From: Escherichia phage vB_EcoM_G17
Reading direction: 5' to 3' (one strand)
Length of the DNA stretch: 64,000 nucleotides
Sequence record: MK327931.1
Positions 14,727 to 44,362 of the stretch are shown piece after piece. The translations under genes were made by a program, and so were the position numbers. Each line of letters begins with the position of its first letter. Position 1 is the stretch's first letter. Below the pieces are notes generated by a model. The model was not told the origin of the DNA, did not search any database, and saw only the letters and a list, made by a program, of their open reading frames with translations.

Positions 14727-14814
14727 AACATTCCCTTTTAATAGATGTATTATAGAAATATTTATGAAACTATAGAGAATATAAAAATTAGTTTAATTTA
14801 ATCTTTTTTGGTCT

Positions 14815-14822
14815 TATAAATA
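14815..14822 (+). promoter_or_regulatory. T4-type late promoter box TATAAATA
   Basis: Exact tataaata at 14815-14822, ~35 nt upstream of ATG 14857. Confidence 0.55.
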
Positions 14823-21349: not shown

Positions 21350-21357
21350 TATAAATA
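21350..21357 (+). promoter_or_regulatory. T4-type late promoter box TATAAATA
   Basis: Exact tataaata 21350-21357, ~36 nt upstream of ATG 21393. Confidence 0.55.
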
Positions 21358-21392: not shown

Positions 21393-22124
21393 ATGATTGA
21401 TCGTAGAATTCGATTACGACCTAAAGCCGCAGGTGCTAACTATGTATATGGTGATTTCGGGGATAGCTCCGAACCAACACTACTTTCGTTTCTGCGTCCA
21501 ACTAATGGGTTGGTTTGGACTGTAACACCAACAATTACTGAACAAAGGTCAATTCAGTATGAAACACAGTCTCCTATACATACCAACAGTAACTATAACA
21601 ACTATAAGAACACTACTAATACAGTTTTCACTATTCAGGGTGAATTTTATGCAAATACAGCAGCAGAAGCTATGTATGCGTTGGCATGTGTTCATTTTAT
21701 ACGTTCTGTTTCATTGATGGATTTTGGTAGACAAGCTGCTTCGGCTAATAACCCCGAACTCGCAATTGCGGGTGCACCACCACCAATCTTACTTCTAAGT
21801 GGATATGGTCGTTATACATATAATGATATTCCTGTTATTTTAAAATCTTATAATTTTACTTACCCAAATGATGTTTCTTATATTCAAGTTCCATTGAATA
21901 GTAGCGATAGTACTTTTAATTTATCCGACATGGATAGTAGAAAATTCTTCGAACAACTTAGAAGTACTGGATATATGAACCCACAAGATGAAGTTTGGGT
22001 TCCACAAAAAATCTCAGTTATGTTACAACTTGAAGAACAACCAACATCGGATTATATGACTAAAACGTTCAACCTCAATGCATTCAAACGTGGTGAACTA
22101 TTACGTAAAGGAGGATTCATTTAA
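21393..22124 (+). CDS. Baseplate / tail-tube associated structural protein (tentative)
   Basis: ORF track starts at 21303 but that lies upstream of the late promoter; ATG 21393 (MIDRRIRL...) has a GGAG RBS. Assignment from position in baseplate block only. Confidence 0.45.
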   Translation: MIDRRIRLRPKAAGANYVYGDFGDSSEPTLLSFLRPTNGLVWTVTPTITEQRSIQYETQSPIHTNSNYNNYKNTTNTVFTIQGEFYANTAAEAMYALACVHFIRSVSLMDFGRQAASANNPELAIAGAPPPILLLSGYGRYTYNDIPVILKSYNFTYPNDVSYIQVPLNSSDSTFNLSDMDSRKFFEQLRSTGYMNPQDEVWVPQKISVMLQLEEQPTSDYMTKTFNLNAFKRGELLRKGGFI

Positions 22125-22438
22125 TGTCCAACTATAGTCAATACTCACCTTACGCTAAGGTGAAACAAACATGGTATCTTGGGTATAATTTACCACGTGA
22201 TATTGTTCCGGCTGATACTGATGATTTTTATGAGATCCCATTGAAATATGAATATCAACCTTGGCGTTTAGCATACGAAATGTATGGTAATGAACGCTTA
22301 TATTATATTTTCGCATTGTTAAATCCAGACATACTAGGAGAAGATCCTATATATAATTTTAAAAGTGGAGTAACAATTAGAATACCAGCAAATCAAAGAG
22401 TACAGAATTATCTTAATGGTACTCGAAACATAGGCTAA
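22124..22438 (+). CDS. LysM-like baseplate protein (T4 gp53 / P2 gpX-like)
   Basis: 104-aa ORF; YEIPLKYEYQPWRLAYEMYGNERLYYIFALLNP resembles the LysM-like segment of gp53-class proteins; GGAGG RBS. Confidence 0.45.
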   Translation: MSNYSQYSPYAKVKQTWYLGYNLPRDIVPADTDDFYEIPLKYEYQPWRLAYEMYGNERLYYIFALLNPDILGEDPIYNFKSGVTIRIPANQRVQNYLNGTRNIG

Positions 22439-24712: not shown

Positions 24713-27376
24713 ATGGCAGATACAAGTAAAAAGTATGCACAACAGCAGTTGGGTCGTTTTGACCCATCTTATCCGCAGTTAGCAACTGTTATGGATAACA
24801 GAGATCCAACTAAATCAGGAAAACTGAAAGTTTGGATACAAGGTTCTCAAAGTGATAAAAACTCAAAAGAATCATGGATAGAAGCATCTTACATGTCTCC
24901 TTTTGCTGGTAAAACACCAGGTATTCCAAGTGCTGATGCATATGGTCAATATCCAAAAGGATACGGTTTTTGGGCAGTACCACCAGACGTAGGGTGTACA
25001 GTTGTTGTAATTTTTGCACAAGCCCGTACATTCCAAGCATATTGGATTGGTTGTGTATATGACCAGCGTATGAATACTATGGTTCCGGGTATGGCAACTG
25101 AAGTAAGTAATTATGGTGGAACTGATATGCCACTTCCTGTTACTGACTATGATCGTAACACTATCACTACCGATATGCAAGACAAATATGCTAACGTTCC
25201 AATCATCGCAGGTCTTAAAAAGCAAAACCTTTTATATGACGAAGAAGCTGGGTTGGCGAATCGTAGTAGTACTCGACAAACCACAAGTACTGTATATGGA
25301 ATGTCATCACCACGTGGAAATAGTTTCATTATTGATGATGGATATACTGAAGAGGAATTAACTGCACCCACATGGGATCAAGACCCAGATGGATATCAAG
25401 ATACGCAATTTAATAACCCAGTAAACGATACCCGTGTTGGTTCTCGTAAAAATGAAGGTGTTGTAATAAAAACACGTAGTGGTGCACAACTTCTTTTATC
25501 AGAAGCAACTGGTGATGTTCTTTTAATTAACCGTGACGGTACTGCACGTATTAAATTCACTGGTGAAGGTGATATTGACATGCATTGTGACAAGAATATC
25601 AATATTCGTGCAGGACAAGATATTAATATTACGGCTGGACGTTCATACAACATTGAAACCGGACAAGATTTCAATGCACGCGTTGGTGCAAATACTAAAT
25701 TAGATCTAATTGGTGCTCTTGATGCAAAAGTTGGTGGACAAGTGGTGGTTAATTCAGGTGCTGACCTTCGTTTAGTTACGGCTGCATCATTACGTATGCA
25801 AAGTGGTAGCAGTACTGATATTACGGCTGGTTCAAATGCTTCTATTTCTGCCGCAACATCTGCAAACCTAATTGGATCATCATCAGCAATTATTAGTGGT
25901 GGTGGTCAAACATTAACAGTTAATAGTGGTGGTAATAGCGGTACTGCTGAATTTACTGCACCAAACTTTAGAACACCATCTGCTGGTCTTAATGAACACA
26001 TTCATGATATCGCTGCATGGGTTAACGCTGAAAATCATGGTAGTTATGTTGAACCACCAAGACAAGGTGGTGGAAGTGGTTCTAGTGAATCACCAGTACA
26101 ACCACAACCAGCAAATGATGTATCACCAGAATTACCCGTAGCACAAGACACTGAAGCTGTTCAGTTTGTTAACTATACATCAGAAACTGAACAAGTTCAA
26201 TCACAAGATTTGATGACATCTGATCCTGGGATGACTGGATATAGTATTACATATGAAGGTTTACATATGTTAATGCCATGTAGCGGTACTATTCGACAAT
26301 ATGGTTACTGGGGGAAAGGTGTTCCAACACAAAGTGGAGGAAAGGCAGACCGTTCAGGTTGGGAAATACAATGTAAAGGTGATGTAGTTGCACCAGATGG
26401 TGGTGTGGTAGTAATTACTAATGGTGCTCTTTTAATACAACATAAGTCTGGATATAAATCTATTTTTTATAATATTCAATCTGATTTATTAAACAAAGAT
26501 GTTGTTCAAAAAGGTCAAGTTGTTGGAAAAGCAAATGGTGTCATACAGTTTGAAATTCGTGTTACATCAGCAAATGTTCTTGGATTCAGTGGTTCTGTTG
26601 ACCCAGGATTATTTTATGCTTCACAAACAGGAACAGGGTCTGATGCGGCGAATAAAACATTAATTGGTGGTCAAGCAACTAATCAATCTGCTCCAAAAGC
26701 AGTTGTACAACCTTCAGTTGATAGTGATGAATTGGTAGTTACAACAAAAATCAAAACGATAGGTACTGGATATTCTCAACGTGGTTCTCGTCATGTGCCT
26801 CGTAGGAGAAGAACACAGAGAAGTGGAGCTTCAACAACTCCGGTGGAGCAACCTACCTATAATATTGGAAATGTTGATAAAACTGCAATCGATTGGAAAG
26901 TTGTTCCAGGTGATGCACAATTTATTTCTGAATTAAAAGAATATGAAGGTACATTACAATACCAACAAGCAAAAGGATATTATCGTAATGGTAAATTCTG
27001 GCGTTATTTGGATAGTCGTGGGTATCCAACTATTGGTTATGGTCACTTGATTATTAGTGGTGAAAACTTTTCAGATGGAATAACTGAACAGCAAGCCAAC
27101 GATATGTTAGTTCGTGATAGTAGTAAAGCTATATATGATGCTAAATCAATTTATGCTTCATATAACATGAAAACACCTTATTTGGCTCAACAAGTACTAT
27201 GCCAAATGGTATTCCAGATGGGTAAAGGTGGGGTACTTAAATTTAAAACTATGTTGTCTGAATTAGCTAAAGGTAATTATAAACAAGCTGCTGCTCAAAT
27301 ACGTAATTCAGCTTGGTATCGCCAAACTACTCGCCGTGCTGAGTTAATGGCTCGTCGTTTAGAGGCATGTCAATAA
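24713..27376 (+). CDS. Baseplate central spike (gpV / gp5-like OB fold + beta-helix) fused to a degenerate M23/LytM-like domain and a C-terminal T4-type (GH24) lysozyme domain
   Basis: 887-aa ORF. N-terminal WIEASYMSPFAGKTPG...YGFWAVPPDVGCTVVVIFAQ matches the gpV/gp5 OB-fold consensus; residues ~280-400 are short beta-helix repeats; a mid region has M23 spacing (LLIQHKSGYKSIFYNI...KGQVVGKANGVIQFEIRV) but VIQFE replaces HLHFE; the C-terminus (EGTLQYQ...TIGYGHLI...QMVFQMGKGG...WYRQTTRRAELMARRLE) is a T4 lysozyme fold with Glu/Asp/Thr at catalytic positions. Confidence 0.75.
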   Translation: MADTSKKYAQQQLGRFDPSYPQLATVMDNRDPTKSGKLKVWIQGSQSDKNSKESWIEASYMSPFAGKTPGIPSADAYGQYPKGYGFWAVPPDVGCTVVVIFAQARTFQAYWIGCVYDQRMNTMVPGMATEVSNYGGTDMPLPVTDYDRNTITTDMQDKYANVPIIAGLKKQNLLYDEEAGLANRSSTRQTTSTVYGMSSPRGNSFIIDDGYTEEELTAPTWDQDPDGYQDTQFNNPVNDTRVGSRKNEGVVIKTRSGAQLLLSEATGDVLLINRDGTARIKFTGEGDIDMHCDKNINIRAGQDINITAGRSYNIETGQDFNARVGANTKLDLIGALDAKVGGQVVVNSGADLRLVTAASLRMQSGSSTDITAGSNASISAATSANLIGSSSAIISGGGQTLTVNSGGNSGTAEFTAPNFRTPSAGLNEHIHDIAAWVNAENHGSYVEPPRQGGGSGSSESPVQPQPANDVSPELPVAQDTEAVQFVNYTSETEQVQSQDLMTSDPGMTGYSITYEGLHMLMPCSGTIRQYGYWGKGVPTQSGGKADRSGWEIQCKGDVVAPDGGVVVITNGALLIQHKSGYKSIFYNIQSDLLNKDVVQKGQVVGKANGVIQFEIRVTSANVLGFSGSVDPGLFYASQTGTGSDAANKTLIGGQATNQSAPKAVVQPSVDSDELVVTTKIKTIGTGYSQRGSRHVPRRRRTQRSGASTTPVEQPTYNIGNVDKTAIDWKVVPGDAQFISELKEYEGTLQYQQAKGYYRNGKFWRYLDSRGYPTIGYGHLIISGENFSDGITEQQANDMLVRDSSKAIYDAKSIYASYNMKTPYLAQQVLCQMVFQMGKGGVLKFKTMLSELAKGNYKQAAAQIRNSAWYRQTTRRAELMARRLEACQ

Positions 27377-27388
27377 ATATTTTAGTAC

Positions 27389-27396
27389 TATAAATA
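27389..27396 (+). promoter_or_regulatory. T4-type late promoter box TATAAATA upstream of endolysin gene
   Basis: Exact tataaata 27389-27396, ~17 nt upstream of ATG 27413. Confidence 0.5.
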
Positions 27397-27412: not shown

Positions 27413-27901
27413 ATGAGTAAATGGGAAATTAAAAATACAGATGAGCAATTTTTTAAGGAAATTAAAGAATTTGAAGGAACTATTGCTTATCAGAAAAAAC
27501 TTGGTTATTTTAAAAATGATAAGTTTTGGGTATATAAAGACAGCTTAGGTCTTGATACAATTGGCTATGGTCACCTAGTTTTACCTGGTGAAAATTTCAA
27601 GAATGGTTTAACAGAAGCACAAGCTGACCAACTTCTTCTTAAAGATGCTCAAACTGCGTACAATGATGCAAAATCAATTTATGAACAATTTGGTATGACC
27701 GCACCTATACAGGTTCAACGTGTATTATGGTTGATGGTATTCCAGATGGGCAAAACCAAAGTTTTAAAATTTAAAAAAGCAATGACCGCATTAGGTAAGG
27801 CTGATTATAAAACTGCTGGTAAGGAATTGCGTGATAGTACATGGTATAAACAAACCACTTCAAGAGCGGAAAAGATGGCACGTATTGTTGAATCCGTATA
27901 A
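27413..27901 (+). CDS. e: Endolysin, T4-type lysozyme (GH24)
   Basis: 162-aa ORF; EFEGTIAY...DSLGLDTIGYGHLV...LWLMVFQMGKTKV...WYKQTTSRAEKMARIVE matches T4 lysozyme catalytic Glu/Asp/Thr and core; clearly paralogous to the C-terminal domain of the upstream spike protein; GAGGA RBS. Confidence 0.85.
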   Translation: MSKWEIKNTDEQFFKEIKEFEGTIAYQKKLGYFKNDKFWVYKDSLGLDTIGYGHLVLPGENFKNGLTEAQADQLLLKDAQTAYNDAKSIYEQFGMTAPIQVQRVLWLMVFQMGKTKVLKFKKAMTALGKADYKTAGKELRDSTWYKQTTSRAEKMARIVESV

Positions 27902-27916: not shown

Positions 27917-28312
27917 ATGGCAGTTGTTTTTAAAGGTTTTTCTACCCCAGTAGTGGGTAGAACTGAAACATTGTATGATAGTGAATTGGTTCGCCAAGAT
28001 TTAATGAATCATTTCAATACAAAAAAAGGCGAAAGAGCATTTGATGCTGACTATGGTTTTATTGCATGGGATTTGCTGTTTGAATTGGAAGGTTATAATA
28101 CTATCAACCTTTTGGAAGCAGATGCCCGTAGAATAATTAGCTTAGATCCACGCTTAAATCTTAAGAAATTGCAAATTTCAAGAATAGAATATGGATACCA
28201 AATGAATATTGTATTACAGTACGTAGTATTGGATACATTAGAAGAACTTACTATTGTATTCGATGCAAGAAGTAATAACAGAATGGCAACATATTCAGTA
28301 TCGTCTTTATAA
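27917..28312 (+). CDS. Baseplate wedge protein gp25-like (GPW/gp25 family)
   Basis: 131-aa ORF; GERAFDADYGFIAWDLLFE parallels T4 gp25 GSRPFDPEFGCDLSDQLFE. Confidence 0.7.
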   Translation: MAVVFKGFSTPVVGRTETLYDSELVRQDLMNHFNTKKGERAFDADYGFIAWDLLFELEGYNTINLLEADARRIISLDPRLNLKKLQISRIEYGYQMNIVLQYVVLDTLEELTIVFDARSNNRMATYSVSSL

Positions 28313-28413: not shown

Positions 28414-31400
28414 ATGTCACAACAAAAAAGGCAATCAAATTTATACGCTGGTGAGGATTGGACTCAAGTATATGAAAGTTTTTATAAAATCAATCTTACA
28501 GCTTATGACTTCGATACTATCCGTCAGAGTATGATTGATTATCTACGTGCAACTTACCCAGACTCATTCAACGACTGGATCGAAAACGACCAGTTTATTT
28601 TTATTTTAGATACGATTTCTATGCTAGGGCAGAACTTGGCATTTCGTATGGATTTGAACACACGTGAAAACTTTTTAGATACTGCAACTCGTCGTGCATC
28701 AGTACTAAAACTAGCTAAAATGATTTCTTACTCACCACGCCGCTCATATCCAGGTCGTGCAGTTGCTAAATTAACCGAAATTAAAACAAACCAAGATGTT
28801 CGTAATAGTTTTAATGAATCATTAAAAGATAAAATCATTCGTTGGAATGACCCGATGGATGCTAACTGGTATGAAAACTTCATTCTAGTAATGAACAGTT
28901 CATTTGTCAGTACTAACCAATTTGGTAATCCAGTCAAGCGTATTGATGTTAATGGTGTCTCTCGTCAACTATATCGAATGAACACCATCCCAATGACAGC
29001 ACCCAGTATTCCATTTATTGCAACTGTCAATGGTGAATCTATGACATTTGAAGTAGTGAATCCTGATATTACGTCTGTTGGTGTTGAAGAACGACATCCA
29101 GAACCACAAGAGCAAAAATATATTGTTTATCAAAATGATGGTAATGGATTTAGTTCACCAAATACTGGTTTTTTTGTATATTTCGTACAAGGTACATTGA
29201 CATATCAAGATTATCAATATGCTATCCGTGAAGAGAACCGTATACAAGATATTAACGTTGATAATATCAACGAAACTGATGTATGGGTTCAAGAAATAAA
29301 TGAAGATGGTATTGTTCGTACCAAATGGACAAAAGTTCCATCAATGGAAAGTATTGCATATAACACTGTTAATCGTCAATTAAAAACAATTTTTGCTGTT
29401 ACTACTCGTGATAAAGATCAAATAACAATTAAGTATCCAGACTCAAGAAGTGGTGTTGTTCCCCGTGGGACGTTCCGCGTATGGTATCGTGTTAGTAATG
29501 GTAAAACATATAACATTAAAACTTCTGAAATTCAAAACAAAAGCGTAAAATATACATATCGTACAAAAACACAGTCAAGTTATGAATCTAGTACATTGGA
29601 TATACGTTTTTCATTACAATATGAGTCCGACCGTGCACAAAGTGCAGAGACTATTGAGCAGATTAAAGCACGTGCACCACAAATGTACTATACACAAAAC
29701 CGTTTTGTCAATGGTGAAGATTATAATATTGCACCACTTAGTTTAGGCAATACTGTACTTAAATCTAAAGCTATTAATAGAATTTATAGTGGACAATCAA
29801 GATTTATTGATATTAATGATCCTACTGGTAAGTATCAAAATACCGATGTTTTTAGTGATGATGGTGCATTATATCAAGAAAACACACAATTTAATAGATC
29901 ATTATTGCTACCAACTACAAAAACAAATGCTAGTATTGTTATTGACAATATTCAACCATTGATTGGTGAAAATGCGGTAATACAACGTTACCAAGCGTTT
30001 CCATCAAATACAATTGGTATTGAAATACAACAAGCATGGACTCCGGTATACAATTCAAATTATACAACTAACACATATGGTAGAATTTTGGGTTCATCTG
30101 GTACAGTTTATGGTTCATATCAGGTTGGTACTCTAATTAAATTTTCTAATTCTGGAACTACTATATGGGCTAGTGTAGTTAGTGTATTGGATAATGGATT
30201 TTATGTACTGAGTACATCGGTTCCAAGTGGAATGCAAGCCATAGAGTACATTTTACCATATAGAACTAGATTTAACTCGGTTGAAGTTCAAGCAATTTCT
30301 GCTATGCTAGATAAAAAAACTGATTTTGTTATTGTACATGACAAAGAAACGACATCATGGGTTCCTATTGAAGTAAGTACCAATGATGATACTATTGTAT
30401 ATAATGGTAATGAAGTTTTAATTATAATTAATGTAAAATATACAGCAGAAACTTGGGAATTTGATGCTAACGGTATTGAATATATTTTTGTGGGTGGAGA
30501 AAAAGTAAGATTTTACTTTGTATCATCTAAAAAAATTACTGATATTAGTACTGGTACAGTTCAAAGTGATAAGATTGAAATTTTATCATCTAACACTACT
30601 AGTAGTAGTAATTCAGGATTGACAAGTAATATAGATTTTCAAATTTATGACACAATTCAACAAGAGAATGGCTATCTAGATGGTTCTCGTGTTATTGTTA
30701 CATCTAGGAAAGTAGATAGTAATGGTATACCATTGGAACCAAACCAATTTAAAGAAATTGTTCCTACTTGGACTGGAACCGATGCATTAAAATATGGTGG
30801 TATTTTGGTATTTCAGGAAAATAGTGATTTCACTATATCAGTACTGTCGTTACCAAATGATACCTTCACACTTCTTGATTCATCGTGGTCTTATACAATG
30901 GAACAAGCCTTGGCAGAGCCGAATGCATATAAAAGAACTGAATTTGTTAGAAATAACGCAATTCGTTCAACCACATTGAGTGGATTATATAGTAAAGGTT
31001 CTGGATTTTTAGTTGGTTTTAACTATGATGGTAAATATTATTTTATTGAACAAACAGTTGGTAACAACAATGATCGTTTAGGACAGCTAATTAGTAATTT
31101 AACTTATTCCGATGATACTGGCACTGTTAGTCCTGAATTGGCTTTTTATCGTGCAATTAATAACATGGGAACTAATGCTGACGAGAATCAGAAGCTAGAT
31201 TATTATGGATACAAAGATGTTACTTCACAGTACACTGTTAAAACTAATGCACGTACTAGTATAGACTTCCATTGGAAACACTATGCACCTGACGACAATC
31301 GCATTGATCCTAGTAGAACAAACTTAATTGATATGTATGTATTAACCAATTCATATAAAACTGAAGTTGACGTTTGGTTGAAAAATAATGCTGTTGGTAG

Positions 31401-31875
31401 TATTCCTAAACCACCTACATCGGTTGAATTGAAAGATATGTTCAAAGATGTTGAACAAAAAATAGTCATTAGTGATAGTATTATTTGGCATAGTGCTGAG
31501 TACTTACCTTTATTTGGCAACAGTGCTGCTGAAGATTACAAAGCTGATTTTAAAGTAGTGAAATTACCAAACAGCACAATGAGTGACGATGAAATTCGTC
31601 AAAATGTTATAGCATTAACTAATGAATACTTCAATGTTGACAACTGGGATTTCGGTGAAAGTTTCTATTATACTGATTTGTGTACTTACATACACTCACA
31701 GTTAGGTAGACATATTAGTACCATTGTTATAGTTGCACAAAATCCAAATTCAAAATTTGGCTCTCTATTTGAAATCCCTTCACGTTCAGACCAAATATTT
31801 TTGAGTACTGCATCTGTTGAAAATGTTCAAATTGTTAACTCACTAGCTAAAAGTAATATTAATATCGGTTCTTAA
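28414..31875 (+). CDS. Baseplate wedge protein gp6-like (baseplate J family), extended
   Basis: 1153-aa ORF; the N-terminal region (DFDTIRQSMIDYL...ILDTISMLGQNLAFRMDLNTRENFLDTATRRASVLKLAKMISYSPRRSYP) follows the gp6 / baseplate J N-terminal pattern; AAGGAA RBS. Confidence 0.7.
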   Translation: MSQQKRQSNLYAGEDWTQVYESFYKINLTAYDFDTIRQSMIDYLRATYPDSFNDWIENDQFIFILDTISMLGQNLAFRMDLNTRENFLDTATRRASVLKLAKMISYSPRRSYPGRAVAKLTEIKTNQDVRNSFNESLKDKIIRWNDPMDANWYENFILVMNSSFVSTNQFGNPVKRIDVNGVSRQLYRMNTIPMTAPSIPFIATVNGESMTFEVVNPDITSVGVEERHPEPQEQKYIVYQNDGNGFSSPNTGFFVYFVQGTLTYQDYQYAIREENRIQDINVDNINETDVWVQEINEDGIVRTKWTKVPSMESIAYNTVNRQLKTIFAVTTRDKDQITIKYPDSRSGVVPRGTFRVWYRVSNGKTYNIKTSEIQNKSVKYTYRTKTQSSYESSTLDIRFSLQYESDRAQSAETIEQIKARAPQMYYTQNRFVNGEDYNIAPLSLGNTVLKSKAINRIYSGQSRFIDINDPTGKYQNTDVFSDDGALYQENTQFNRSLLLPTTKTNASIVIDNIQPLIGENAVIQRYQAFPSNTIGIEIQQAWTPVYNSNYTTNTYGRILGSSGTVYGSYQVGTLIKFSNSGTTIWASVVSVLDNGFYVLSTSVPSGMQAIEYILPYRTRFNSVEVQAISAMLDKKTDFVIVHDKETTSWVPIEVSTNDDTIVYNGNEVLIIINVKYTAETWEFDANGIEYIFVGGEKVRFYFVSSKKITDISTGTVQSDKIEILSSNTTSSSNSGLTSNIDFQIYDTIQQENGYLDGSRVIVTSRKVDSNGIPLEPNQFKEIVPTWTGTDALKYGGILVFQENSDFTISVLSLPNDTFTLLDSSWSYTMEQALAEPNAYKRTEFVRNNAIRSTTLSGLYSKGSGFLVGFNYDGKYYFIEQTVGNNNDRLGQLISNLTYSDDTGTVSPELAFYRAINNMGTNADENQKLDYYGYKDVTSQYTVKTNARTSIDFHWKHYAPDDNRIDPSRTNLIDMYVLTNSYKTEVDVWLKNNAVGSIPKPPTSVELKDMFKDVEQKIVISDSIIWHSAEYLPLFGNSAAEDYKADFKVVKLPNSTMSDDEIRQNVIALTNEYFNVDNWDFGESFYYTDLCTYIHSQLGRHISTIVIVAQNPNSKFGSLFEIPSRSDQIFLSTASVENVQIVNSLAKSNINIGS

Positions 31876-31881: not shown

Positions 31882-31906
31882 GGGCGTTCTTCGGAACGCC
31901 TTTTTT
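31882..31906 (+). terminator. Rho-independent terminator after gp6-like gene
   Basis: Stem ggcgttc/gaacgcc with UUCG loop (31883-31900) followed by tttttt. Confidence 0.65.
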
Positions 31907-31924
31907 ATATCATAAATAAATCAA

Positions 31925-34900
31925 ATGAATGAACGAATTATATGGAGTCCAAAAATGACTAATAATTTTAAGTTTCAACCTACACAGATGGCTGAAGCAG
32001 TACAGAAGAAGCTTTTTATTAAAAGATTGCCTGAGTGGATGCAAGGCTTAGAAGATATTCAAAAAGTCAGTGATGATGTTATTCAACAATGGTTTAATCC
32101 GGCTGAAAACGAATTAGTTGACGGCTATATTGGTGATATGGGTTCTCCTGCCGCTGCTGGTAATATCTTCTTACATGAAAGTACTGTAGCACGTCAACTT
32201 TATCAGTTGTCCACTGCTTACGTCTCAAAAAATGATGATTCGACAATTCGTTCAATTCAATTTTATGATGATCTAGTTGGATACATGAATCATTATGGAG
32301 CACTAACCGATAATGAAAGCCGTTTGTTCAACGGTAAGTTTTATGCATGGACTCCAGCTATTAACCCAAATAAAATGAACAATTTTAGCTCATATCTTTG
32401 GGATACTAAAAACTCTTATAATATTACTTCACCTGATTACATTGTAATGGAACGTGGAGCACTTAATGGTAATACATGGTCACTACAAAACTTTTGGTAT
32501 ACTTTAGGTGAAACATTAGAAGATGGCTCAATATTAACTGAAGAATTAATGCAAGATTCACGTTTTATTCGTGCACGTGCACCAATTATTGAATATAATA
32601 AAAATATTGAGCTAATTAACTACGGTACAAAATTCCGTGGAACTGTTGATCTGTTCTCTGATATTATTAAACCTGAAGATATCGTTCAAAAAGATATTAA
32701 TAGTGGTATACGTATTGATGGTATTATTCCGCAAGATGGAATGCGTATTCTATTCACCAGTATTGGTAACAATGGTGAAAACAATAGAATTTATAATGTA
32801 TATGTGAAAAAAATGCAAGATGGTACTCGTGTTTATGGTTTAGCACTAGATCCAGAAGAAGAAACCGAATCACGCCCAAGTGGTGAACCTCAAGATGGTG
32901 ATGTTGTTCTAATCACTAAAGGTAATGAGTATGGTAATAGTTCTATGTACTGGAATGGATCTTTGTGGGTTCGTGCACAATCAAAAACTAGTGTTAACGT
33001 ATTCCCTAAATTCCAACTTTATGATCGTAATGGTATCAAACTTGACAACAGTACTACATATCCATCAAGTAACTTTAAAGGTTCAGAGTTGTTTGGTTTT
33101 AAAATAAATTACAACTATGCAACTGATAGTGTATATGGATATAACATTGAACTTGGTGATTATAATTATTACATTTATGAAAACTTTTTACAATCCCAAC
33201 GTTATACCTATGACCATCTTGGAAAAGAAGTTGAAATTGATGGTTTATACTATTATAACATTATTGATGAAAATAATGAAATGAATCTTCAAACCGATTG
33301 GGTTCGTTCAGAAGAGTACTCTAAACAATTTGTAAAACAAACTCCACAAGTCCAACGTACTGATATGTATCGTGTATTCAGTACTGTTTATGATATGGAA
33401 GTTTTTAAAGAACCAGTTGATGGTATGTATGCATATGTTATTGAAGTTGATAGAACATATCAGTACTATAAAGCTGACCGTGAAACTTATCTAGATTGGC
33501 ATCCAATTACTGGTGATGGTGTTCAGATTGTAAAATATGACCATACATTCGAATTGGCACAAAAAGTTTTAGATAATGATTCTGATATTATTGAAGTTGT
33601 GGTTGATGGTGTTGATGTGTCCAAATATACCAAAAATGTTTCAAAAGGTCAAGTACAAAGCATCACTCTAGATAGTACTGTAGAATTGGATGAAGATTCT
33701 GTTATTCAAATTAGAACTTATAGCAGTACTGTAACTCCTAATAAAGAATTAGGTGCATATGAAGTTCCAATCAACCTACAAAATAACCCATATAATTCTA
33801 ATATTATATACATTAACCAAGGTGACTACACTTTACATTTTCAGGATATTATTCAAAAGAACATTACACGTGGTTCTTCTGATGATTTCAATGACTATGA
33901 AGAACGTTTGGCTAAAGGATTGGTTAATAATGGCGTAGGTACTAAAATTATCCAAAATGAAGCATCTATGCTTCCATTGATGGCACATACTGCAAATGAA
34001 GATATTGATTTGTTTGAAGCAACTATGTTTATGCAATCTGAATATTTTAGATTCATTAATAAATTTAATACACAAATGCTTCGTATGTATGATGAAAATC
34101 CATCAGACTTTTTACAAAATAGTGCTGCAAACATTGTTGATGCAATTTTAACTACTATTAATATGGGACGTGATAGTTCATTCCCATTCTATTATGATAA
34201 TGTTGGAAGTACTTCTGGATTCATTCGTGCATTTATACCACCAACACCACAGTTCTTAGGTATTCTTCAAGCATATGTACCAGAAAAAGCGACATTCCTC
34301 ACTGCTGGTAGTAAACCAAGCTGTTATAACATCAGTCATACTGGTATTATTTCCAAAGCATACCGTGTTATCAATGGTGTTGATAAAATGGATGATGTTG
34401 TATATGAATTAGAAAATAGAATTTTTAATAGTATTGATAATAAATTCAAAGATGTTGATTACGTACCAGTATTGAATAGTGATGACCTTTTCCCTACACC
34501 ATATTTCACTAAAACTGAATATAGTGCTGAAGAGAAACAAACATTATTACTACGTGGATACATTAACTTCACCGCAACTAATGGTATCAGTAATAGTACA
34601 CATGATTATGATCCTAACAATTGGAGAACTTGGAACTATACTGGCACTTATTATGTAGTTAATGGTCAAAGTACTGAAATTCCTGCACGTGGTTCATGGC
34701 GTGCCATTTACACTGACCAATATGGTACATATCGCCCAGCTACCCATCCGTGGGAAATGTTTGGCTTTACACAACGTCCAACTTGGTGGAACCAAGAATA
34801 CGAACCAACGGCTGTTCAAGTTGGTGAACGTGATAGTGATGTTGTATATGTATATGAAGCACTTGTTATGAATGAGCAAGGTGATTTAGTTCCTAGTGGT

Positions 34901-37900
34901 CTTTGGGATATTGACGGAACTATTGGAGATAGCAGTACTGGAACTATTTTATTTGGTGATCGTCGTGGTCAATATGACAAATATAAAAGATTTGGTGTAC
35001 AGCCATTCAAAATTACAAAAACTGGAAATAAAACATCTTCTGGTATTGATATTTGTGTGGTTGAATATATTGCACCTGAAATTTTAGGTTTAGTGTCTGG
35101 ATCTTTAAATCATAGAGCAGAACCTTGGACATATGGTGATATGGGTGACATGGAATTTACATACATGAACACTACATTGTTTGCATATGACCAAATGATG
35201 CTTTTGTATAAAGCTAAACCAGCACAATTTGCTAACTATTTCTGGGATACCCGCAACGATAACTTAAAAGAAGTATTCACTGATGGTTCACAATTCCTTT
35301 ATGGTGATACACGTAAGCGTATTAATTTTGATAAAAATACAGTAGTTCATGGTGAAAATAGCACAAGAACAATTGGTTATCAAATGTTTGTAAGTGACCA
35401 TTTGATGTATCAAAATAAAAATATTACCACCAAGTATGGGGATGTAGTTCGTTCTTCTTATATAAATGTTGGTCATAAAATTGGAGGATTTACTAAAGCA
35501 GATCAGCTAACATTCAATGCTAAATCTTTCGGTCTTATTTCACAAGAAAACCAAACCATTGGTCTTGTTCGTTCTAATAATATCCGTGATGAGCAAATGA
35601 GTGCGATCAAAATTACTTGGAATGGTAGTGCATATCAGATTGATGGATATGATCTAGTTGGTGCTAAATTTAAATATAAACTTCCAGTAAAAAATGGTAG
35701 AAAAGTAACTCTTAAATTGGAAAACCGTAATGTTGTTCATTATAATGAATGGAAGTCTGAAGCTTCAATTGAATATGGTAAAGTTTTCAATAGTTACCAA
35801 GAAGTTTATACTTTTATTTGTGGATATGGTGAATATCTTAAAGAACATGGTTGGATTTTTGAAGATGTAAATGATAGTGGTGCTCAACAAGATTGGAACA
35901 CTATTGCTAAAGATTTCGTGATCTGGAGTCAGAATTCTCTAGTAACTGGTGAATTTATTTCTTGTACCCCAAGTGCTGCAAACGCTAAATTTGGGGCAGA
36001 CTTTGGTTCAGTACAATCTATTACGCAAAATAATGGTGGTGTATGGTCATTACTTGATGATAATAACCAAGGTATTCGCCAATATGAAATTGAAACTTCT
36101 CGTATTGGAAATATCTTCACTGTTAGAACTTTAGAATCTAATAAACGCATTGCATTGATTCGTTTAAGTTTGTGTTCATATGAACATGCTGTTATTTTTG
36201 ATGATAAAACTATTTTTGGTGATTACATTTATCAGCCAACATATGGTTCTATTCAAGAACTAATTAAAATGTATGGATATATTACTGGTTCATGGACTGG
36301 TCGCCTACAAGCTCCTGGATTTATTATCTTGGAAGCTGGAACACTACCATCATTTGAAAAATTAGTGTCGGATTTCCAACATTATTATGATAGTGAAACT
36401 CCAGTAAGTGATGTACAATTACAAGAGTTGTCAAACCATTTGATTGGTTATCAATCTCGTGATTATCTACAGCGTATGATTAGTAGTGATGTTAGTCGTG
36501 TTGATTTCTATAAAGGATTCATTCACGATAAAGGTACTAACCAAGTTTTAGAACGTGTACTTCGTGTTTCTAAATCATATGACACTGATGAATATAAAGC
36601 ATTACAAGAATGGGCATTTAAAATTGGTACATATGGTAATATTGATGGTAAGAAAAACCTTCAATTTAAACTAATCAATGACCAATTTAAACAACAACCT
36701 CAAATGGTTTCTTTTGATGTAAATGCAACTTCAAATGGTAATGGTAATCATATTGTATACTTCGGTGAGCAAGGTAAAGATCCTCGTTGGATTACACGTC
36801 CAAATGGTAAGTTCTCATTCCCAATGCGTAGTGGAAGAAGTGAAAACATCCAACTTCCAGATATTGGTCCAGTAACATTGGATGAAGTATCGTACACAAC
36901 AAAAGATTTCAGTACTGCATATAATGACCGCATAACTTATACTAATGGTAAAGGTGAAAATCCTGAATCTGTGTGGATGTTTAAAGACGGTAATGGTTTG
37001 TGGAACATTTTTGAATTGGTTGATACTAATGTACAAATGGTTTCTATAACACCTATTGAAAATACCGATGTGTATGCTGAACAATTTTGTAAAGTAACTT
37101 TAACTGATAATGTACCACTTGAAGATGGTGATTATTATTATTTTGTTGATGAAACTAACTTTATGCCAGATACTTTAACAGTAGAAAGTCAATATTATAC
37201 TGCTGGTTCTGATCCTAAAGTTATGGTAGTTCCATTTGACACTTCTATTGATATTGAATTTACTGATCCAGATACACGTCCACGTTTGTATCGTTATGTA
37301 TCACGTTTTGCCAGTACTGATGATCGTCAAGCTTACATTGACAAGAAATATAGTTTTAAAGCACCACAAAGTACTTTATTTGATCGTCCAACGACATATG
37401 ATGAACGTACTAACATTACTGAGCTATATCTAAACGTTTATGACCCAATTAATGGTGTTATTCCAGGTGCGGCTATGCAAAACGTAACATATACTTCACC
37501 AGTTGATCCTGCACAGTATAATAGTAATGGAGAGTTAATCCAGGCTTGGGGTGCTGATAAAGTTGGTCAAGTATGGTGGAACACTAGCACTGCATTTTAT
37601 TTGGATTATACTCGTGCAATTTATGACGCAGACGGTAATGTTGATATTGATGCAACCAATGAATACAAACGTTACAACTGGGGCCGTTTGTTACCACATA
37701 GTACCATTGATGTGTTAGAGTGGGTTTGTTCACCAGTTGAGCCATATAACTGGGACAAATACTGTAAAGATGTTGCTAAGAAAAACAAAAATAATACTAT
37801 GTATCTACCAAGTGGAACTGCACTTGAAGATAATTATAGTACATTTTTGGAATATGATAGTTCAACTGATAGTTATGTAACAAAATACTATTTCTGGGTA

Positions 37901-40900
37901 CGTGATACAATTTATGTACCACCACTACATACCAGAACGAAATCATGTACTGACATTGCTCGTATTATTAAAGATCCAACACAGCTAAACATTCCTTGGT
38001 TCGCTCCAATAAATGAAAACTCGTTTATTCTTAGTAATATGCAATTTAAAGTGAATGATGATACCAGTATTTTAACTGTTTCTTATTACATGGATAGTAC
38101 TGAAGTTGTTAAACATGACCAGTATCAACTATGTAAAGAAGGTGACAGCTATAACTTTAACCCACTAATTTGGGATTCAATGTGGAACTCACTAATTGGT
38201 CAAGAAACAACTGAATCAGGTTCTGTGATTAATTTATTATATCCAGATGTTGATAACGGTTTAGGATCAAACAAAACTTGGTTCCAAAATGTTATAGAAG
38301 CTCGTAGAAACTTTGTAGAAAGTGCTAATAATTATTATAGGTCACAAAACATAACCACTAATAGTGTTGTTATGGAAGATGTGTTTAATGTTAAAACCAC
38401 TGAAGTTAACCCTAATGAAGTTTCTTTCCGTGTGTTGTCTTACAATAATGAATTAGTTATTGCAGTTGAAAGTGATAAATTTAAAGAAAATGACGCTGTT
38501 ATTTTAAGTACTAGTGGATATCTACCAAATCCATTAACTTCTAGTGCTGTTTATTTTATTCACTTCGACGAAAATGGATATATTCAGTTAATGAATAGTC
38601 CAGCAAACGCGGGTAGTGTTGTTACTATAACGTTAGAAAACAAAGGTGAGGGACAACATAAAATGATTAAACAATCTGATTATGTTGAATCACTAGGAAC
38701 CTCATTAGACATGACTCAGTACTGGTCATATGCTGATTGGTATGATGTTGGATATGATAGTAACACGACTTATACTCAAGAGTCAAGCTTAGAAGATGCT
38801 AATACTAAAAACTACCAAGTTGGCGATATTATCAGAGTTACCGATAGTGAAAACATTTGGACATTGTATATTAAATCACAATCACGCGATTCAATTTATT
38901 GGAAAGCGATTGGTCGTGAAAACAGTACAGTTGAACTCAATGATATGCTTTACGCAGATTATAGTGTTCATAATGATAATGGTTCACTAAGCAATCGTGA
39001 AATCAACGTTCGTAAAGCACTAGCTTTACTCAAAAATTCTTTCGATTTACATCAAAGCGAAATTGTTTTTGATATGGTCAAATATGTACATGTTGAACAA
39101 AGTGTTGTGGATTGGGTATTTAAAACATCATATATCTATATTGTTGGTTTGGAACAATCATTAGTTCAAAACTATTCAAACGATAATTTGATTAATCAAA
39201 TTGTTGAATATTTTGAAGAAGTTAAACCTTATAGAACTAAAATTCGTTCACAAATAGAGCAAAAGACATCTGATGATGATTTAATAAAAGGTCTATGTAA
39301 TGATTTAGATCCTAATGGATATATTTTCGTTGATGGTTCTTGGATCAAAACTGAAAAAGATATTTGGGATTATGAGTACGCTCAATTTAATGAAATTACC
39401 CAAAAATGGGAACAGGTAGGTTCACTACCAAGTGATTTCGTTACACCAAATAGAAGATTCCAAGAAATTGATATTATTATGCATTATGATAATATTCAGT
39501 GTAAACCAAATGAAGATTTGGCAAGCATAAATGAATTAGTAAGTGTTAATAACAAATATCAATCCAATGAAAAGGATGCTGTTAGTAACTATGAATTACA
39601 ACGTTATATATATTCTTTCCCAGAATATAGTGAAGAAACTTTCGATCTTCTTATTGCTTATCAAATGCAAATCTACTATCCAGAATTGGATGTAACACTA
39701 GGAACAGCATATGGCGTTAACCAGTGGTATAAAGACCATGCGGAAGATTTAGAAGCAACTGATGAATTCACTGCTACATTGGAACGTGTTTATAAAGAAT
39801 CAACGCATAACGATATGTTTACTGACCTTAGACAATATGTTCAGTATAACACATTGGCAAACCGTTTGAAACTTTATAAAGATATAAGTGATGAGAAAAT
39901 TCACGATGAAGTTGGATGTGGATTTAGTGGACTTACTTATAATGACAATCCTAGTACTAGACTTCCATTAGGCTTTTCTTCTAGTAATGATTATAACTAT
40001 GGATATTTTGAAATAAGCAGTGAATTGTATCAAAAATACATTTCATTAATTAAAGATAAAAATCCTGACGCATCAGACTATGAAGTAAAAGTTAAACTTG
40101 AAGTTGAGTATGGTGTATATGTTTATCGTTATGATGAAGTAGGTGGTGATACCCGTTTCTATACTGATGCTATTCACGTATTAGCAGGTATGAGAGGGTT
40201 ATTCGACAAAGACGCTACTGATAAGTACGAAAAAGCTGAAGAGATTCTTAGTAAGACCCCAATTGATATCTATGCAATTACAATGATTCCACGAAAATAT
40301 GTTTACTTAAATGTTAACGGTGTATATCAAAGTATACCTGATGAACAAAGTATTGATGATTTCATGGAAGATTATTTTATCACAAATGGTGAAATGGTTG
40401 AACTAGCTGAAATAAATCTTGATGATTTACCACTAGATCAAAATAATCCAATGTATTCTGATTATCAATATATACTTGATAGTATTACTGAAGCTAAGTA
40501 CTTCAATGATATGAATGCATTTGATAACCTAGCATTGGAATCTCAAACTTCTTCAATAAAATGGGAAGTTAAAGATGATGAAGTTGATCCTTATATTGTG
40601 GATATATCTGACATAAACCCTTCTGGGCGTGATGTAGGTCAAATTAGATTTACAGTTGATGGATATGGGTTTGACAATGTATCTCTTGTACAATTACGTG
40701 ATAACAGCAGATATCAAACTGAAGGTATGGCAATTATCAATCCATATAAACATACAGAAGCAATTGTAAGTATTCCTTCATATGCTAAGATTGAAAATGA
40801 TATTAATAAAACAACATCGAAGTTTGATGAAAAATATTTCTATCGTGTGAGATCTATTAATAGCTTAACTGAAGCAGAAATAGTTGACAATGACCTATCT

Positions 40901-41926
40901 GATGGTGATAAGGTGATGATTTTCACTCCTGATGGTGAAGATTTTGTGAGATATCAAAATCACACATGGGAAACAATCTTGCGTGTATCTAACATCAAAA
41001 ACAATACAACTCCGATCCTATTCACTGTAAGAAATACAGGTAAGGAAACGATTGAATTGATTGATGAGAGTACTGGTGCAGTTCTCCGTTATGATAACAT
41101 CACTCTTGCACAACAAAATGAGCCAGTACAGCCTCTAGCATTGAACATTGTTCGTGTTAGAACATTTGCTGACCCTGAATTTGTCAAGAATGGTATTAAA
41201 TTGTATGAACAAAATAGAAATTACACCATTGATGTAATTAATTATGATGTTTTCTACGATACTACTTTAAATGGTGGTAAGTACAATGACGGAATAACAC
41301 CAGATGACGTTGACGTTTGGATAATCTCTAATGAAATATTTGATGTTGATGGAATTACTATCGATAACGGTTATAACTTACCAATTACGGGTGCGGGAGT
41401 TCTTAGTGAATTGGCAAGAACTAAAATGACTGATAGTTTAGAAATCAACGTTATCGAATATGATTCAAGTGTTATTCAACCGTTTAGAAATAATGAAGGG
41501 ATATGGGTTTATGGATTCCCAATGGTTGACGGTATGTATATCGGTGTTGTTGGTGGTACTGTTACTAACATCACAACCATTAGTGAAGAAAATACAACCT
41601 ATGTTTCTCAACCTAAATCAATAAGTCCTTATAGTATTAGAAATAATGTTTTATCCGGTTCAGCCGCAAACATGAATGATATTATATCGATTGGATATGA
41701 AAAAGTTGAAGTTAGAAATGCAAATAATTTACTCCGTGGTGTAATGTATAGTGCAGAACATGATTTTAAACTTAATACTACATATTCTTTCAATGGAATT
41801 AATTTAGGTAATTATGATATGTTAAAACGTTACACACAAAATAGTTACACTATAGATCTTTCAGTATACACTGATAGTCTACAAGTTAGTGGTAATGATA
41901 TTAAAAATATATTATTAGTTAAGTAA
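31925..41926 (+). CDS. Giant virion structural protein (3333 aa by ORF track; gp7 position, baseplate wedge or fiber-like)
   Basis: Uninterrupted 10-kb ORF directly downstream of the gp6-like gene. Alternative start ATG 31955 has a GGAG RBS; a near-consensus CATAAATA late box lies at 31911-31918. Asn/Tyr/Thr/Asp-rich, no recognisable catalytic motifs. Confidence 0.7.
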   Translation: MNERIIWSPKMTNNFKFQPTQMAEAVQKKLFIKRLPEWMQGLEDIQKVSDDVIQQWFNPAENELVDGYIGDMGSPAAAGNIFLHESTVARQLYQLSTAYVSKNDDSTIRSIQFYDDLVGYMNHYGALTDNESRLFNGKFYAWTPAINPNKMNNFSSYLWDTKNSYNITSPDYIVMERGALNGNTWSLQNFWYTLGETLEDGSILTEELMQDSRFIRARAPIIEYNKNIELINYGTKFRGTVDLFSDIIKPEDIVQKDINSGIRIDGIIPQDGMRILFTSIGNNGENNRIYNVYVKKMQDGTRVYGLALDPEEETESRPSGEPQDGDVVLITKGNEYGNSSMYWNGSLWVRAQSKTSVNVFPKFQLYDRNGIKLDNSTTYPSSNFKGSELFGFKINYNYATDSVYGYNIELGDYNYYIYENFLQSQRYTYDHLGKEVEIDGLYYYNIIDENNEMNLQTDWVRSEEYSKQFVKQTPQVQRTDMYRVFSTVYDMEVFKEPVDGMYAYVIEVDRTYQYYKADRETYLDWHPITGDGVQIVKYDHTFELAQKVLDNDSDIIEVVVDGVDVSKYTKNVSKGQVQSITLDSTVELDEDSVIQIRTYSSTVTPNKELGAYEVPINLQNNPYNSNIIYINQGDYTLHFQDIIQKNITRGSSDDFNDYEERLAKGLVNNGVGTKIIQNEASMLPLMAHTANEDIDLFEATMFMQSEYFRFINKFNTQMLRMYDENPSDFLQNSAANIVDAILTTINMGRDSSFPFYYDNVGSTSGFIRAFIPPTPQFLGILQAYVPEKATFLTAGSKPSCYNISHTGIISKAYRVINGVDKMDDVVYELENRIFNSIDNKFKDVDYVPVLNSDDLFPTPYFTKTEYSAEEKQTLLLRGYINFTATNGISNSTHDYDPNNWRTWNYTGTYYVVNGQSTEIPARGSWRAIYTDQYGTYRPATHPWEMFGFTQRPTWWNQEYEPTAVQVGERDSDVVYVYEALVMNEQGDLVPSGLWDIDGTIGDSSTGTILFGDRRGQYDKYKRFGVQPFKITKTGNKTSSGIDICVVEYIAPEILGLVSGSLNHRAEPWTYGDMGDMEFTYMNTTLFAYDQMMLLYKAKPAQFANYFWDTRNDNLKEVFTDGSQFLYGDTRKRINFDKNTVVHGENSTRTIGYQMFVSDHLMYQNKNITTKYGDVVRSSYINVGHKIGGFTKADQLTFNAKSFGLISQENQTIGLVRSNNIRDEQMSAIKITWNGSAYQIDGYDLVGAKFKYKLPVKNGRKVTLKLENRNVVHYNEWKSEASIEYGKVFNSYQEVYTFICGYGEYLKEHGWIFEDVNDSGAQQDWNTIAKDFVIWSQNSLVTGEFISCTPSAANAKFGADFGSVQSITQNNGGVWSLLDDNNQGIRQYEIETSRIGNIFTVRTLESNKRIALIRLSLCSYEHAVIFDDKTIFGDYIYQPTYGSIQELIKMYGYITGSWTGRLQAPGFIILEAGTLPSFEKLVSDFQHYYDSETPVSDVQLQELSNHLIGYQSRDYLQRMISSDVSRVDFYKGFIHDKGTNQVLERVLRVSKSYDTDEYKALQEWAFKIGTYGNIDGKKNLQFKLINDQFKQQPQMVSFDVNATSNGNGNHIVYFGEQGKDPRWITRPNGKFSFPMRSGRSENIQLPDIGPVTLDEVSYTTKDFSTAYNDRITYTNGKGENPESVWMFKDGNGLWNIFELVDTNVQMVSITPIENTDVYAEQFCKVTLTDNVPLEDGDYYYFVDETNFMPDTLTVESQYYTAGSDPKVMVVPFDTSIDIEFTDPDTRPRLYRYVSRFASTDDRQAYIDKKYSFKAPQSTLFDRPTTYDERTNITELYLNVYDPINGVIPGAAMQNVTYTSPVDPAQYNSNGELIQAWGADKVGQVWWNTSTAFYLDYTRAIYDADGNVDIDATNEYKRYNWGRLLPHSTIDVLEWVCSPVEPYNWDKYCKDVAKKNKNNTMYLPSGTALEDNYSTFLEYDSSTDSYVTKYYFWVRDTIYVPPLHTRTKSCTDIARIIKDPTQLNIPWFAPINENSFILSNMQFKVNDDTSILTVSYYMDSTEVVKHDQYQLCKEGDSYNFNPLIWDSMWNSLIGQETTESGSVINLLYPDVDNGLGSNKTWFQNVIEARRNFVESANNYYRSQNITTNSVVMEDVFNVKTTEVNPNEVSFRVLSYNNELVIAVESDKFKENDAVILSTSGYLPNPLTSSAVYFIHFDENGYIQLMNSPANAGSVVTITLENKGEGQHKMIKQSDYVESLGTSLDMTQYWSYADWYDVGYDSNTTYTQESSLEDANTKNYQVGDIIRVTDSENIWTLYIKSQSRDSIYWKAIGRENSTVELNDMLYADYSVHNDNGSLSNREINVRKALALLKNSFDLHQSEIVFDMVKYVHVEQSVVDWVFKTSYIYIVGLEQSLVQNYSNDNLINQIVEYFEEVKPYRTKIRSQIEQKTSDDDLIKGLCNDLDPNGYIFVDGSWIKTEKDIWDYEYAQFNEITQKWEQVGSLPSDFVTPNRRFQEIDIIMHYDNIQCKPNEDLASINELVSVNNKYQSNEKDAVSNYELQRYIYSFPEYSEETFDLLIAYQMQIYYPELDVTLGTAYGVNQWYKDHAEDLEATDEFTATLERVYKESTHNDMFTDLRQYVQYNTLANRLKLYKDISDEKIHDEVGCGFSGLTYNDNPSTRLPLGFSSSNDYNYGYFEISSELYQKYISLIKDKNPDASDYEVKVKLEVEYGVYVYRYDEVGGDTRFYTDAIHVLAGMRGLFDKDATDKYEKAEEILSKTPIDIYAITMIPRKYVYLNVNGVYQSIPDEQSIDDFMEDYFITNGEMVELAEINLDDLPLDQNNPMYSDYQYILDSITEAKYFNDMNAFDNLALESQTSSIKWEVKDDEVDPYIVDISDINPSGRDVGQIRFTVDGYGFDNVSLVQLRDNSRYQTEGMAIINPYKHTEAIVSIPSYAKIENDINKTTSKFDEKYFYRVRSINSLTEAEIVDNDLSDGDKVMIFTPDGEDFVRYQNHTWETILRVSNIKNNTTPILFTVRNTGKETIELIDESTGAVLRYDNITLAQQNEPVQPLALNIVRVRTFADPEFVKNGIKLYEQNRNYTIDVINYDVFYDTTLNGGKYNDGITPDDVDVWIISNEIFDVDGITIDNGYNLPITGAGVLSELARTKMTDSLEINVIEYDSSVIQPFRNNEGIWVYGFPMVDGMYIGVVGGTVTNITTISEENTTYVSQPKSISPYSIRNNVLSGSAANMNDIISIGYEKVEVRNANNLLRGVMYSAEHDFKLNTTYSFNGINLGNYDMLKRYTQNSYTIDLSVYTDSLQVSGNDIKNILLVK

Positions 41927-41928: not shown

Positions 41929-41966
41929 AAAAAAGGAGAGCATTATGCTCTCCTTTTCTTTTTTTA
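41929..41966. terminator. Bidirectional rho-independent terminator between convergent giant ORF and ClpA-like gene
   Basis: A-run, 8-bp stem ggagagca/tgctctcc (41935-41953), then T-run; works on both strands. Confidence 0.65.
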
Positions 41967-44252: not shown

Positions 44253-44362
44253 GTATTCTCCTATGTGATTCACGTCACTCTAATTAATAAACATTATATC
44301 ACATTCTTACGGTTTGTCTACAAGGTAAATAAAGATATACCCGATTTATTTTGGAGACAATC

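Follow-up and report, generated by a model that had tools for sequence, protein, structure and literature searches.

What is the product of a single 10-kb gene located in the baseplate gene block of a jumbo phage, at the place where phage T4 encodes its wedge protein gp7? The question is raised by the stretch of DNA analysed here (the window, 64 kb long), in which positions 31925-41926 (+) correspond to one unbroken reading frame of 3333 codons followed by a stop codon at 41924-41926. Given the base composition of this region, in which a stop is expected every ~12 codons, the chance of finding 3333 codons devoid of any stop is ~1e-121. The other five frames of the same 10-kb stretch contain 163-607 stops, and the GC content at the three codon positions of the ORF is 45/33/20%. 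Therefore, the ORF is a real coding sequence, as claimed by the initial annotation.

The 10-kb stretch is 100% identical to that of the Escherichia phages vB_EcoM_CRJP21, Sharanji and SP27 and displays 99.9% identity with those of PBECO4 and phAPEC6 and 99.2% with that of 121Q (gp582). The source is a jumbo myophage belonging to the genus Asteriusvirus. The sequence upstream of the first in-frame ATG (31925) does not include any Shine-Dalgarno sequence, and this codon is probably not used. The ATG at 31955, already preferred in the initial annotation, is preceded by a GGAG; the CDS of CRJP21 in GenBank begins at the equivalent of this position; the alignment with PHROG 10938, which begins at residue 11 of the long form, fits the same start; and a database protein of 3323 aa is identical over 100% coverage. 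Therefore, translation probably starts at 31955 and the product most likely has 3323 aa. The gene and its signals are:

31882..31906 (+): intrinsic terminator ending the gp6-like gene (8-bp G+C-rich stem, TTCG loop, T-run)
31911..31918 (+): T4-type late promoter motif CATAAATA (YATAAATA-type site)
31944-31947 (+): Shine-Dalgarno GGAG, 7 nt 5' of the ATG at 31955
31955..41926 (+): CDS of the giant virion protein (3323 aa, 381.86 kDa, pI 4.6)
41931..41957 (+): strong terminator hairpin (12-bp stem) between the giant gene and a convergent Clp-like gene

The YATAAATA motif is found at 9 sites in the 64-kb window, against 18.8 expected, and all 9 are intergenic and oriented towards the downstream gene. 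Furthermore, the window carries a gene encoding a gp55-type late sigma factor (20422-21261; PHROG 234, E 8e-18). The placement and orientation of these sites, combined with the encoded late sigma factor, make credible the near-consensus late box that had been pointed out at 31911-31918. The giant gene is a late transcription unit of its own, with its own promoter and terminators. As a terminator separates it from the gp6-like gene and as it has its own promoter, it is not translationally coupled to the gp6-like gene in this phage.

According to sequence comparisons, the giant protein is a member of the Rak2-like 'largest ORF' virion structural protein family, PHROG 10938, which it matches over its full length (E = 0, 5793 bits, residues 11-3330 versus profile positions 1-3324). 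Its orthologues include phAPEC6 gp245, 121Q gp582, the PBECO4 protein, CBB_236, GAP32_230, the RaK2 and K64-1 homologues and PA5oct gp355, with 99-100% identity within Asteriusvirus and 28-69% in the other named Rak2-like orthologues. Presence in virions, for which mass spectrometry had been suggested, is already published for three of them. PA5oct gp355 (11,574-nt gene) is marked ESI-MS/MS positive; for phAPEC6 gp245, a 'hypothetical protein' of 381.88 kDa whose mass matches that of the giant protein, purified virions yielded 17 unique peptides (PMC7247149); and CBB_236 (10,023-nt gene) was found in virions with 21 peptides (PMC5259590). These orthologues thus belong to the same family, occupy the same place after a gp6-like gene and are found in virions by MS; nothing essential differs. 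In the literature consulted, the protein appears as no more than a 'hypothetical/virion structural protein' or 'the largest ORF' and is given no function, the authors of the CBB paper using the gene merely to align genomes (PMC5259590). The existence of the gene, its size, its conservation and the presence of its product in virions are already public knowledge. What is added here is the case for the gp7 slot made from synteny across the family, together with the negative outcome of explicit tests for homology to gp7, a map of the domains and of the conservation of the giant protein, and the delineation of the family itself.

The genes that precede the giant gene in the window encode the following proteins:

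21393-22124: 243-aa protein, a small neighbour
22124..22438 (+): gp53-like wedge protein (Pfam Phage_gp53)
22450-24699: 749-aa virion protein, between the gp53-like and hub genes
24713..27376 (+): gp5-like hub/spike protein (OB fold, DUF2345, lysozyme domain)
between the hub and gp25-like genes: free-standing lysozyme
27917..28312 (+): gp25-like wedge protein (GPW_gp25)
28414..31875 (+): gp6-like baseplate wedge protein, 1153 aa (PHROG 219/10646 'baseplate wedge subunit'; PHROG 219 E 1e-20)

The order gp53-like, 749-aa protein, gp5-like hub, lysozyme, gp25-like, gp6-like, giant can be compared with the order 53-5-...-6-7-8 of T4. It places the giant gene directly after the gp6-like gene, in the place of T4 gene 7, in agreement with the initial annotation. 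The gp6-like protein, which is the presumed partner of the giant protein, displays a weak N-terminal BLASTP match to T4 gp6, and its PA5oct homologue displays a weak match to Pfam Gp6-like_1st.

The core order gp25, gp6-like, giant is also found in CBB, in PA5oct and in two metagenomic relatives. In PA5oct (~28% identity), the giant has 3857 aa; a gp25-like gene and the gene of a 1319-aa wedge protein precede it, in this order, and genes encoding a 201-aa protein and a fibre protein come next. In the loci of the two metagenomic giants (3508 and 5638 aa; ~25-27% identity), genes for a hub, a GPW_gp25 protein and a DUF8360 protein of ~1100 aa lie, in this order, ahead of the giant gene, whose start abuts the stop of the DUF8360 gene in both of them; a gene for a ~200-aa protein and then one for a Collar-domain fibre come after it. 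The DUF8360 protein encoded upstream of a distant giant is a clear homologue of the gp6-like protein of the window (35% identity, E 3e-160). The arrangement of these relatives is the canonical contractile-tail order gp25, gp6, gp7, fibre. In every lineage examined, the giant gene immediately follows the gp6-like gene, and no conserved gene other than the giant gene is found between the gp6-like and fibre genes of the lineages compared. In the window itself, no relationship could be detected between the 497-aa protein encoded downstream (44363-45856) and the Collar-domain fibre of distant relatives, encoded after the giant gene.

The paper describing CBB reports gp53, gp25, gp6 and a gp5-domain hub and mentions no homologue of gp7, gp8, gp10, gp11 or gp12 (PMC5259590), which would leave the gp7 slot otherwise empty. 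The positional evidence for this slot is strong and independent of homology. Globally, we consider with moderate confidence that the gp7 (third wedge) slot is filled by the giant protein, vastly enlarged and of novel fold, and that it builds the periphery of the baseplate. Like T4 gp7 (the baseplate wedge initiator, 1032 aa), it is a late virion protein whose gene lies right after gene 6 in a module of the 53-5-6-7 type. However, it is 3.2 times longer, carries none of the Pfam domains of gp7, obtains an hhalign probability below 1% and gave no significant fold match for the parts modelled.

Indeed, homology searches yielded little beyond the family itself. When the whole protein and fragments of its N-terminal part were scanned against Pfam, NCBIfam and PHROG, only its own PHROG came back; no Pfam family was found in the whole protein at E <= 0.01 nor in the N-terminal fragments at E <= 10. 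PF21428, PF21456 and PF21427, which are carried by relatives of T4 gp7, are absent from the hmmscan results, as are the other Pfam families of BW3 type (third wedge subunit). With hhalign, the profile of the giant family reached a probability of 0.15% against T4 gp7 and of 0.6% against an alignment of 17 gp7 members, and the comparison with the gp6-like neighbour was null. Searches of PDB sequences gave nothing meaningful with the single sequence and nothing with the full-length family profile. Foldseek comparison of a model of aa 1-1200 with the PDB gave nothing below E 0.09; the lists of fold matches have a tail-protein flavour, all below significance, and T4 gp7 itself does not appear in them. 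The match to the N-terminal fragment of CBA120 TSP4 (7rfv), for which attachment domains like those of T4 gp10 are reported, is weak (~85-97 aligned residues, 16-22% identity, below conventional significance). Since no homology to gp7 is found, it is gene position that carries the gp7 assignment. The initial proposal of a gp7-type wedge protein is partly supported. For the gp8, gp10 or fibre-like domains that were to be looked for, neither Pfam nor PHROG nor the PDB yielded a match to gp8, gp9, gp10, gp11 or gp12. Likewise, the Pfam scan did not detect any intein/Hint or protease domain, the former having also been proposed for scrutiny, and an intein-containing protein or polyprotein precursor was rejected on this ground.

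Conservation and structure prediction divide the giant protein into the following regions:

31955..32203 (+): N-terminal helical segment, aa 1-83, sequence-conserved (pLDDT 27-56), a candidate partner-binding 'core bundle' segment
32204..39304 (+): multi-domain scaffold, aa 84-2450, conserved family-wide
36932..37384 (+): main insertion hot spot, aa 1660-1810, with an FG-GAP repeat in the extra sequence present here in P0093
39047..39343 (+): strongly conserved motif block, aa 2365-2463, at the end of the scaffold (pLDDT 24-44)
39305..41923 (+): C-terminal region, aa 2451-3323, several separate domains, faster-evolving

The AlphaFold2 model of aa 1-1200, obtained from a 22-row alignment, is compact as a single chain (pLDDT 83.2, pTM 0.78), confidence being low only at residues 1-83 and in the C-terminal 25 residues. 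Residues 1-83 are conserved (L25, P26, F47, G57, Y58, G60 and R80 among others) yet unplaced by AlphaFold, which is the behaviour expected of a segment that would fold only with partner chains. This is an indirect hint of the heterotrimeric core bundle with two gp6 chains that characterises third wedge subunits. In the C-terminal model (pTM 0.32), what look like separate domains are connected by linkers of low confidence, and both models, which cover aa 1-1200 and aa 2124 onwards, consist of mixed alpha/beta globular domains. Self-BLAST did not reveal any internal sequence repeat. As the sequence is non-repetitive and the model of aa 1-1200 compact, this part at least does not look fibrous. 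The top conserved motif of the C-terminal half, VDWVFKTSY...EVKPYRTKIR (aa ~2385-2431), is included in the segment of pLDDT 24-44, and the aa 2365-2463 block may be a second inter-subunit contact.

Weakly conserved stretches, or extra residues in relatives, are found near aa 149, 450-590, 950-1040, 1660-1810 and 2150-2250. In distant members, CBM_5_12 and FG-GAP modules are located in additional sequence inside the conserved region or past it, and a third member has a recorded Laminin_G_3 domain; the location of these modules suggests that the corresponding sites are surface-exposed. The last ~870 residues (aa 2451-3323) can be aligned essentially only within the enterobacterial Rak2-like group, in which they display 41-58% identity versus 64-77% over most of the conserved region. 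A tblastn search with these C-terminal 873 aa found 72 phage records; in each phage genome the match is confined to a single place, the end of the giant gene, with the exception of one short partial match in a Vibrio phage.

The family is large. An exhaustive phmmer search with aa 1-1200 as query against 1.84 billion cluster representatives matched 999 of them, 587 at E <= 1e-30. Among the 150 matches listed out of 999, nearly all are 2000-6281 aa long and the few shorter ones have 207-1720 aa. A word-indexed search found 199 homologues, all of those among the matches listed having 2779-5638 aa. This defines a family of ~1000 clusters of near-uniformly giant proteins (lengths being taken from the 150 listed) that lacks a structural template; the giant protein constitutes a good target for cryo-EM, the baseplate map now available being at 25 A. 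The initial annotation had asked whether the ORF is split in related phages. No set of split versions is evident among the listed relatives, but the ORF is split in a few records (SD-1_S14, K64-1 RefSeq and CMSTMSU), and in the one examined this results from frameshifting deletions of 13 bp and 11 bp in a sequence otherwise 99.6% identical. Splitting thus appears confined to some poor assemblies. Conversely, an assembly artefact was rejected as the origin of the long ORF, most of which is intact, in one piece, in 34 of the 57 matching records.

The main rival of the gp7-slot reading also regards the giant protein as a structural component of the baseplate or tail, but as an extra peripheral protein or the hub of a fibre network, the true third wedge subunit being an unrecognised small protein such as the 243-aa or 749-aa neighbour. 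This is rather unlikely given that the giant gene directly follows the gp6-like gene in all lineages examined, to the point of abutting it in distant members, and that no other conserved gene precedes the fibre genes. The other alternative of the initial annotation, a fusion of formerly separate baseplate and fibre proteins (gp7, gp8, gp10 and fibre), would account for a size roughly equal to the sum of the T4 peripheral wedge proteins, for the separate domains of the C-terminal model and for the weak match to the CBA120 TSP4 fragment. It is nevertheless disfavoured, and we hold it to be improbable: matches to gp8-gp12 are lacking in Pfam, PHROG and the PDB, the 150 listed relatives are nearly all giant and do not include any evident split set, the C-terminal 873 aa are found only at the end of the giant gene bar the partial Vibrio phage match, and internal repeats are absent.

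Other readings dissociate the protein from the baseplate wedge. The N4 virion RNA polymerase, a 3500-aa ejected virion protein, provides a model for an internal or ejected protein that would be encoded in the tail module by chance. Giant size, association with virions and the lack of a recognisable structural fold would all suit such a protein. However, no polymerase or other enzymatic domain was found, the place inside the baseplate operon is strictly conserved, and CBM_5_12, FG-GAP and Laminin_G, which are usually extracellular carbohydrate- or ligand-binding modules, suggest an exposed position in the distant members that carry them; an ejected protein is thus very improbable. A large gene in a tail module could also encode a tape measure protein or a trimeric tail fibre, but this is hardly credible, and both were rejected. 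Indeed, the models are mixed alpha/beta and globular rather than an all-helical rod and the gene lies after the gp6-like and other wedge genes, not before the hub, which does not fit a tape measure; a trimeric fibre is opposed by the lack of sequence repeats and of fibre domains in Pfam and PHROG and by the compactness of aa 1-1200 as a single chain.

Under the gp7-slot reading, the giant protein would be a late-expressed virion component that fills the third wedge-subunit slot of a contractile-tail baseplate. Its N-terminal ~85 residues, which would not fold by themselves, would assemble with the helical domains at the N-terminus of the gp6-like protein into the wedge core, beside gp25 and gp53. 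The other ~3200 residues would constitute the periphery of the baseplate, with one polypeptide per wedge, including a conserved scaffold of ~2400 residues and a faster-evolving distal part of ~870 residues that would face or carry the fibres or face the host surface. Movement of the periphery induced by receptor binding would be transmitted to the wedge core and then to gp25 and the sheath, as in T4. These phages, which are studied for therapy, have elaborate branched fibres; the giant protein would then be both the platform for these fibres and the route by which receptor binding triggers contraction.

In other systems, the third wedge slot is that of P2 gpI, Mu gp48 and TssG of the T6SS. P1 BplA and the gp7-like part of Alg12/Afp12/Pvc12 hold the same slot in simple baseplates and contractile injection systems (CIS). 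These simple subunits have a few hundred residues (477 aa for the BplA chain), in contrast to the 3323 of the giant protein, and the similarity with them is not significant. [quoted passage not shown] Provided that the giant protein does occupy this slot, the baseplate of Rak2-like jumbo phages is enlarged through a 3- to 6-fold increase in the size of one wedge subunit relative to T4 gp7. This would concern Asteriusvirus, Alcyoneusvirus, Mimasvirus, Eneladusvirus, PA5oct, Atu_ph07 and hundreds of metagenomic lineages.

By contrast, phiKZ-like phages add many separate proteins. In phiKZ and Goslar (Chimalliviridae), the periphery includes spokes made of gp32/gp139 dimers together with gp220/gp27 (bioRxiv 10.64898/2026.04.21.720040), a role that one 382-kDa chain appears to take here. 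More tentatively, one may envisage a single-chain 'mega-wedge', in which one chain of 3000-6000 residues, made of folds without PDB counterpart, would replace the whole multi-protein periphery of T4 (gp7 to gp11) or of phiKZ; this is possible rather than probable. In lineages that carry lectin-like modules (CBM5/12, FG-GAP, Laminin_G), such a mega-wedge could also be a host-adhesion platform. The CBB baseplate was measured at ~36 x 15 nm (PMC5259590). Six copies of the giant protein per virion would amount to ~2.3 MDa, which, by a rough volume estimate, fits this baseplate.

The octamer YATAAATA is under-represented in the window, occurring 9 times where 18.8 copies would be expected. All nine sites are intergenic, each of them pointing at the gene located downstream. 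These sites, which look like a genuine set of T4-type late promoters, are listed here together with the late sigma factor gene encoded by the same stretch.

7648-7655, minus strand, YATAAATA site
8857-8864, minus strand, YATAAATA site
10762-10769, minus strand, YATAAATA site
14759-14766, minus strand, YATAAATA site
14815-14822, plus strand, YATAAATA site
16700-16707, plus strand, YATAAATA site
20422-21261, minus strand, gp55-type late sigma factor gene
21350-21357, plus strand, YATAAATA site
27389-27396, plus strand, YATAAATA site
31911-31918, plus strand, YATAAATA site

The giant gene is directly followed by a convergent gene encoding a Clp-like protein.

41964-44273, minus strand, ClpB/ClpA-like double AAA+ protein (769 aa)
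44320-44293, minus strand, sigma-70 promoter-like site in the intergenic region upstream of the Clp-like gene

This promoter-like site is near-consensus (11/12 matches) and includes the extended TG. The same convergent arrangement is found in the related jumbo phage CBB, where the Clp-like gp235 gene adjoins the giant orthologue gp236; gp235 does not appear in the part of the list of CBB virion proteins identified by mass spectrometry that was covered here. The Clp-like protein, a chaperone-like ATPase, may aid the folding or assembly of the 382-kDa giant protein.

Within the C-terminal half of the giant protein, the best-conserved motif, VDWVFKTSY...EVKPYRTKIR, is near-invariant throughout the family. 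The segment that holds it (aa 2365-2463, window 39047-39343) has an AlphaFold pLDDT of 24-44 and may correspond to a partner-dependent contact. Distant members of the family also carry CBM_5_12, FG-GAP and Laminin_G_3 modules (P0074, aa 1276-1306; P0093, aa 2743-2791 and 3789-3817; giant gene of locus L006, 10001-26917). Those of P0074 and P0093 fall either inside the conserved region or within the C-terminal part, which is variable. The modules suggest surface exposure and possible glycan binding.

The giant ORF is broken into 3-13 CDSs in SD-1_S14 (OR699183.1), the K64-1 RefSeq record (NC_027399) and CMSTMSU (MH494197). SD-1_S14 is near-identical to the window except for deletions of 13 bp after position 33666 and 11 bp after position 37677, which cause the split. 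The split ORFs probably reflect assembly errors or defective genomes. Furthermore, in vB_EcoM_CRJP21 (OQ708376.1, 156344-190345), several GenBank product names mismatch what the genes encode and seem to belong elsewhere in the genome's gene set: 'nuclease subunit' is given for the gp5-like hub, 'RNA polymerase sigma factor' labels the lysozyme, and the name 'virion protein and lysozyme murein' is attached to the Clp-like ATPase.

Two adjacent genes of the window encode proteins with lysozyme domains.

24713-27376, gp5-like hub carrying a Phage_lysozyme domain in its C-terminal part
27413-27901, separate lysozyme (162 aa) with its own TATAAATA motif

Judging from its tailspike-like N-terminus and its match to a 'colanic acid degradation' PHROG, the 713-aa protein encoded at 51173-53314 is likely a depolymerase. 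A MutT/NUDIX hydrolase gene (47210-47674) also lies amid the tail and baseplate genes. Seven stretches of the 1841-aa tail fibre protein (54366-59891) match one fibre PHROG; this protein is therefore internally repetitive, whereas the giant is not.
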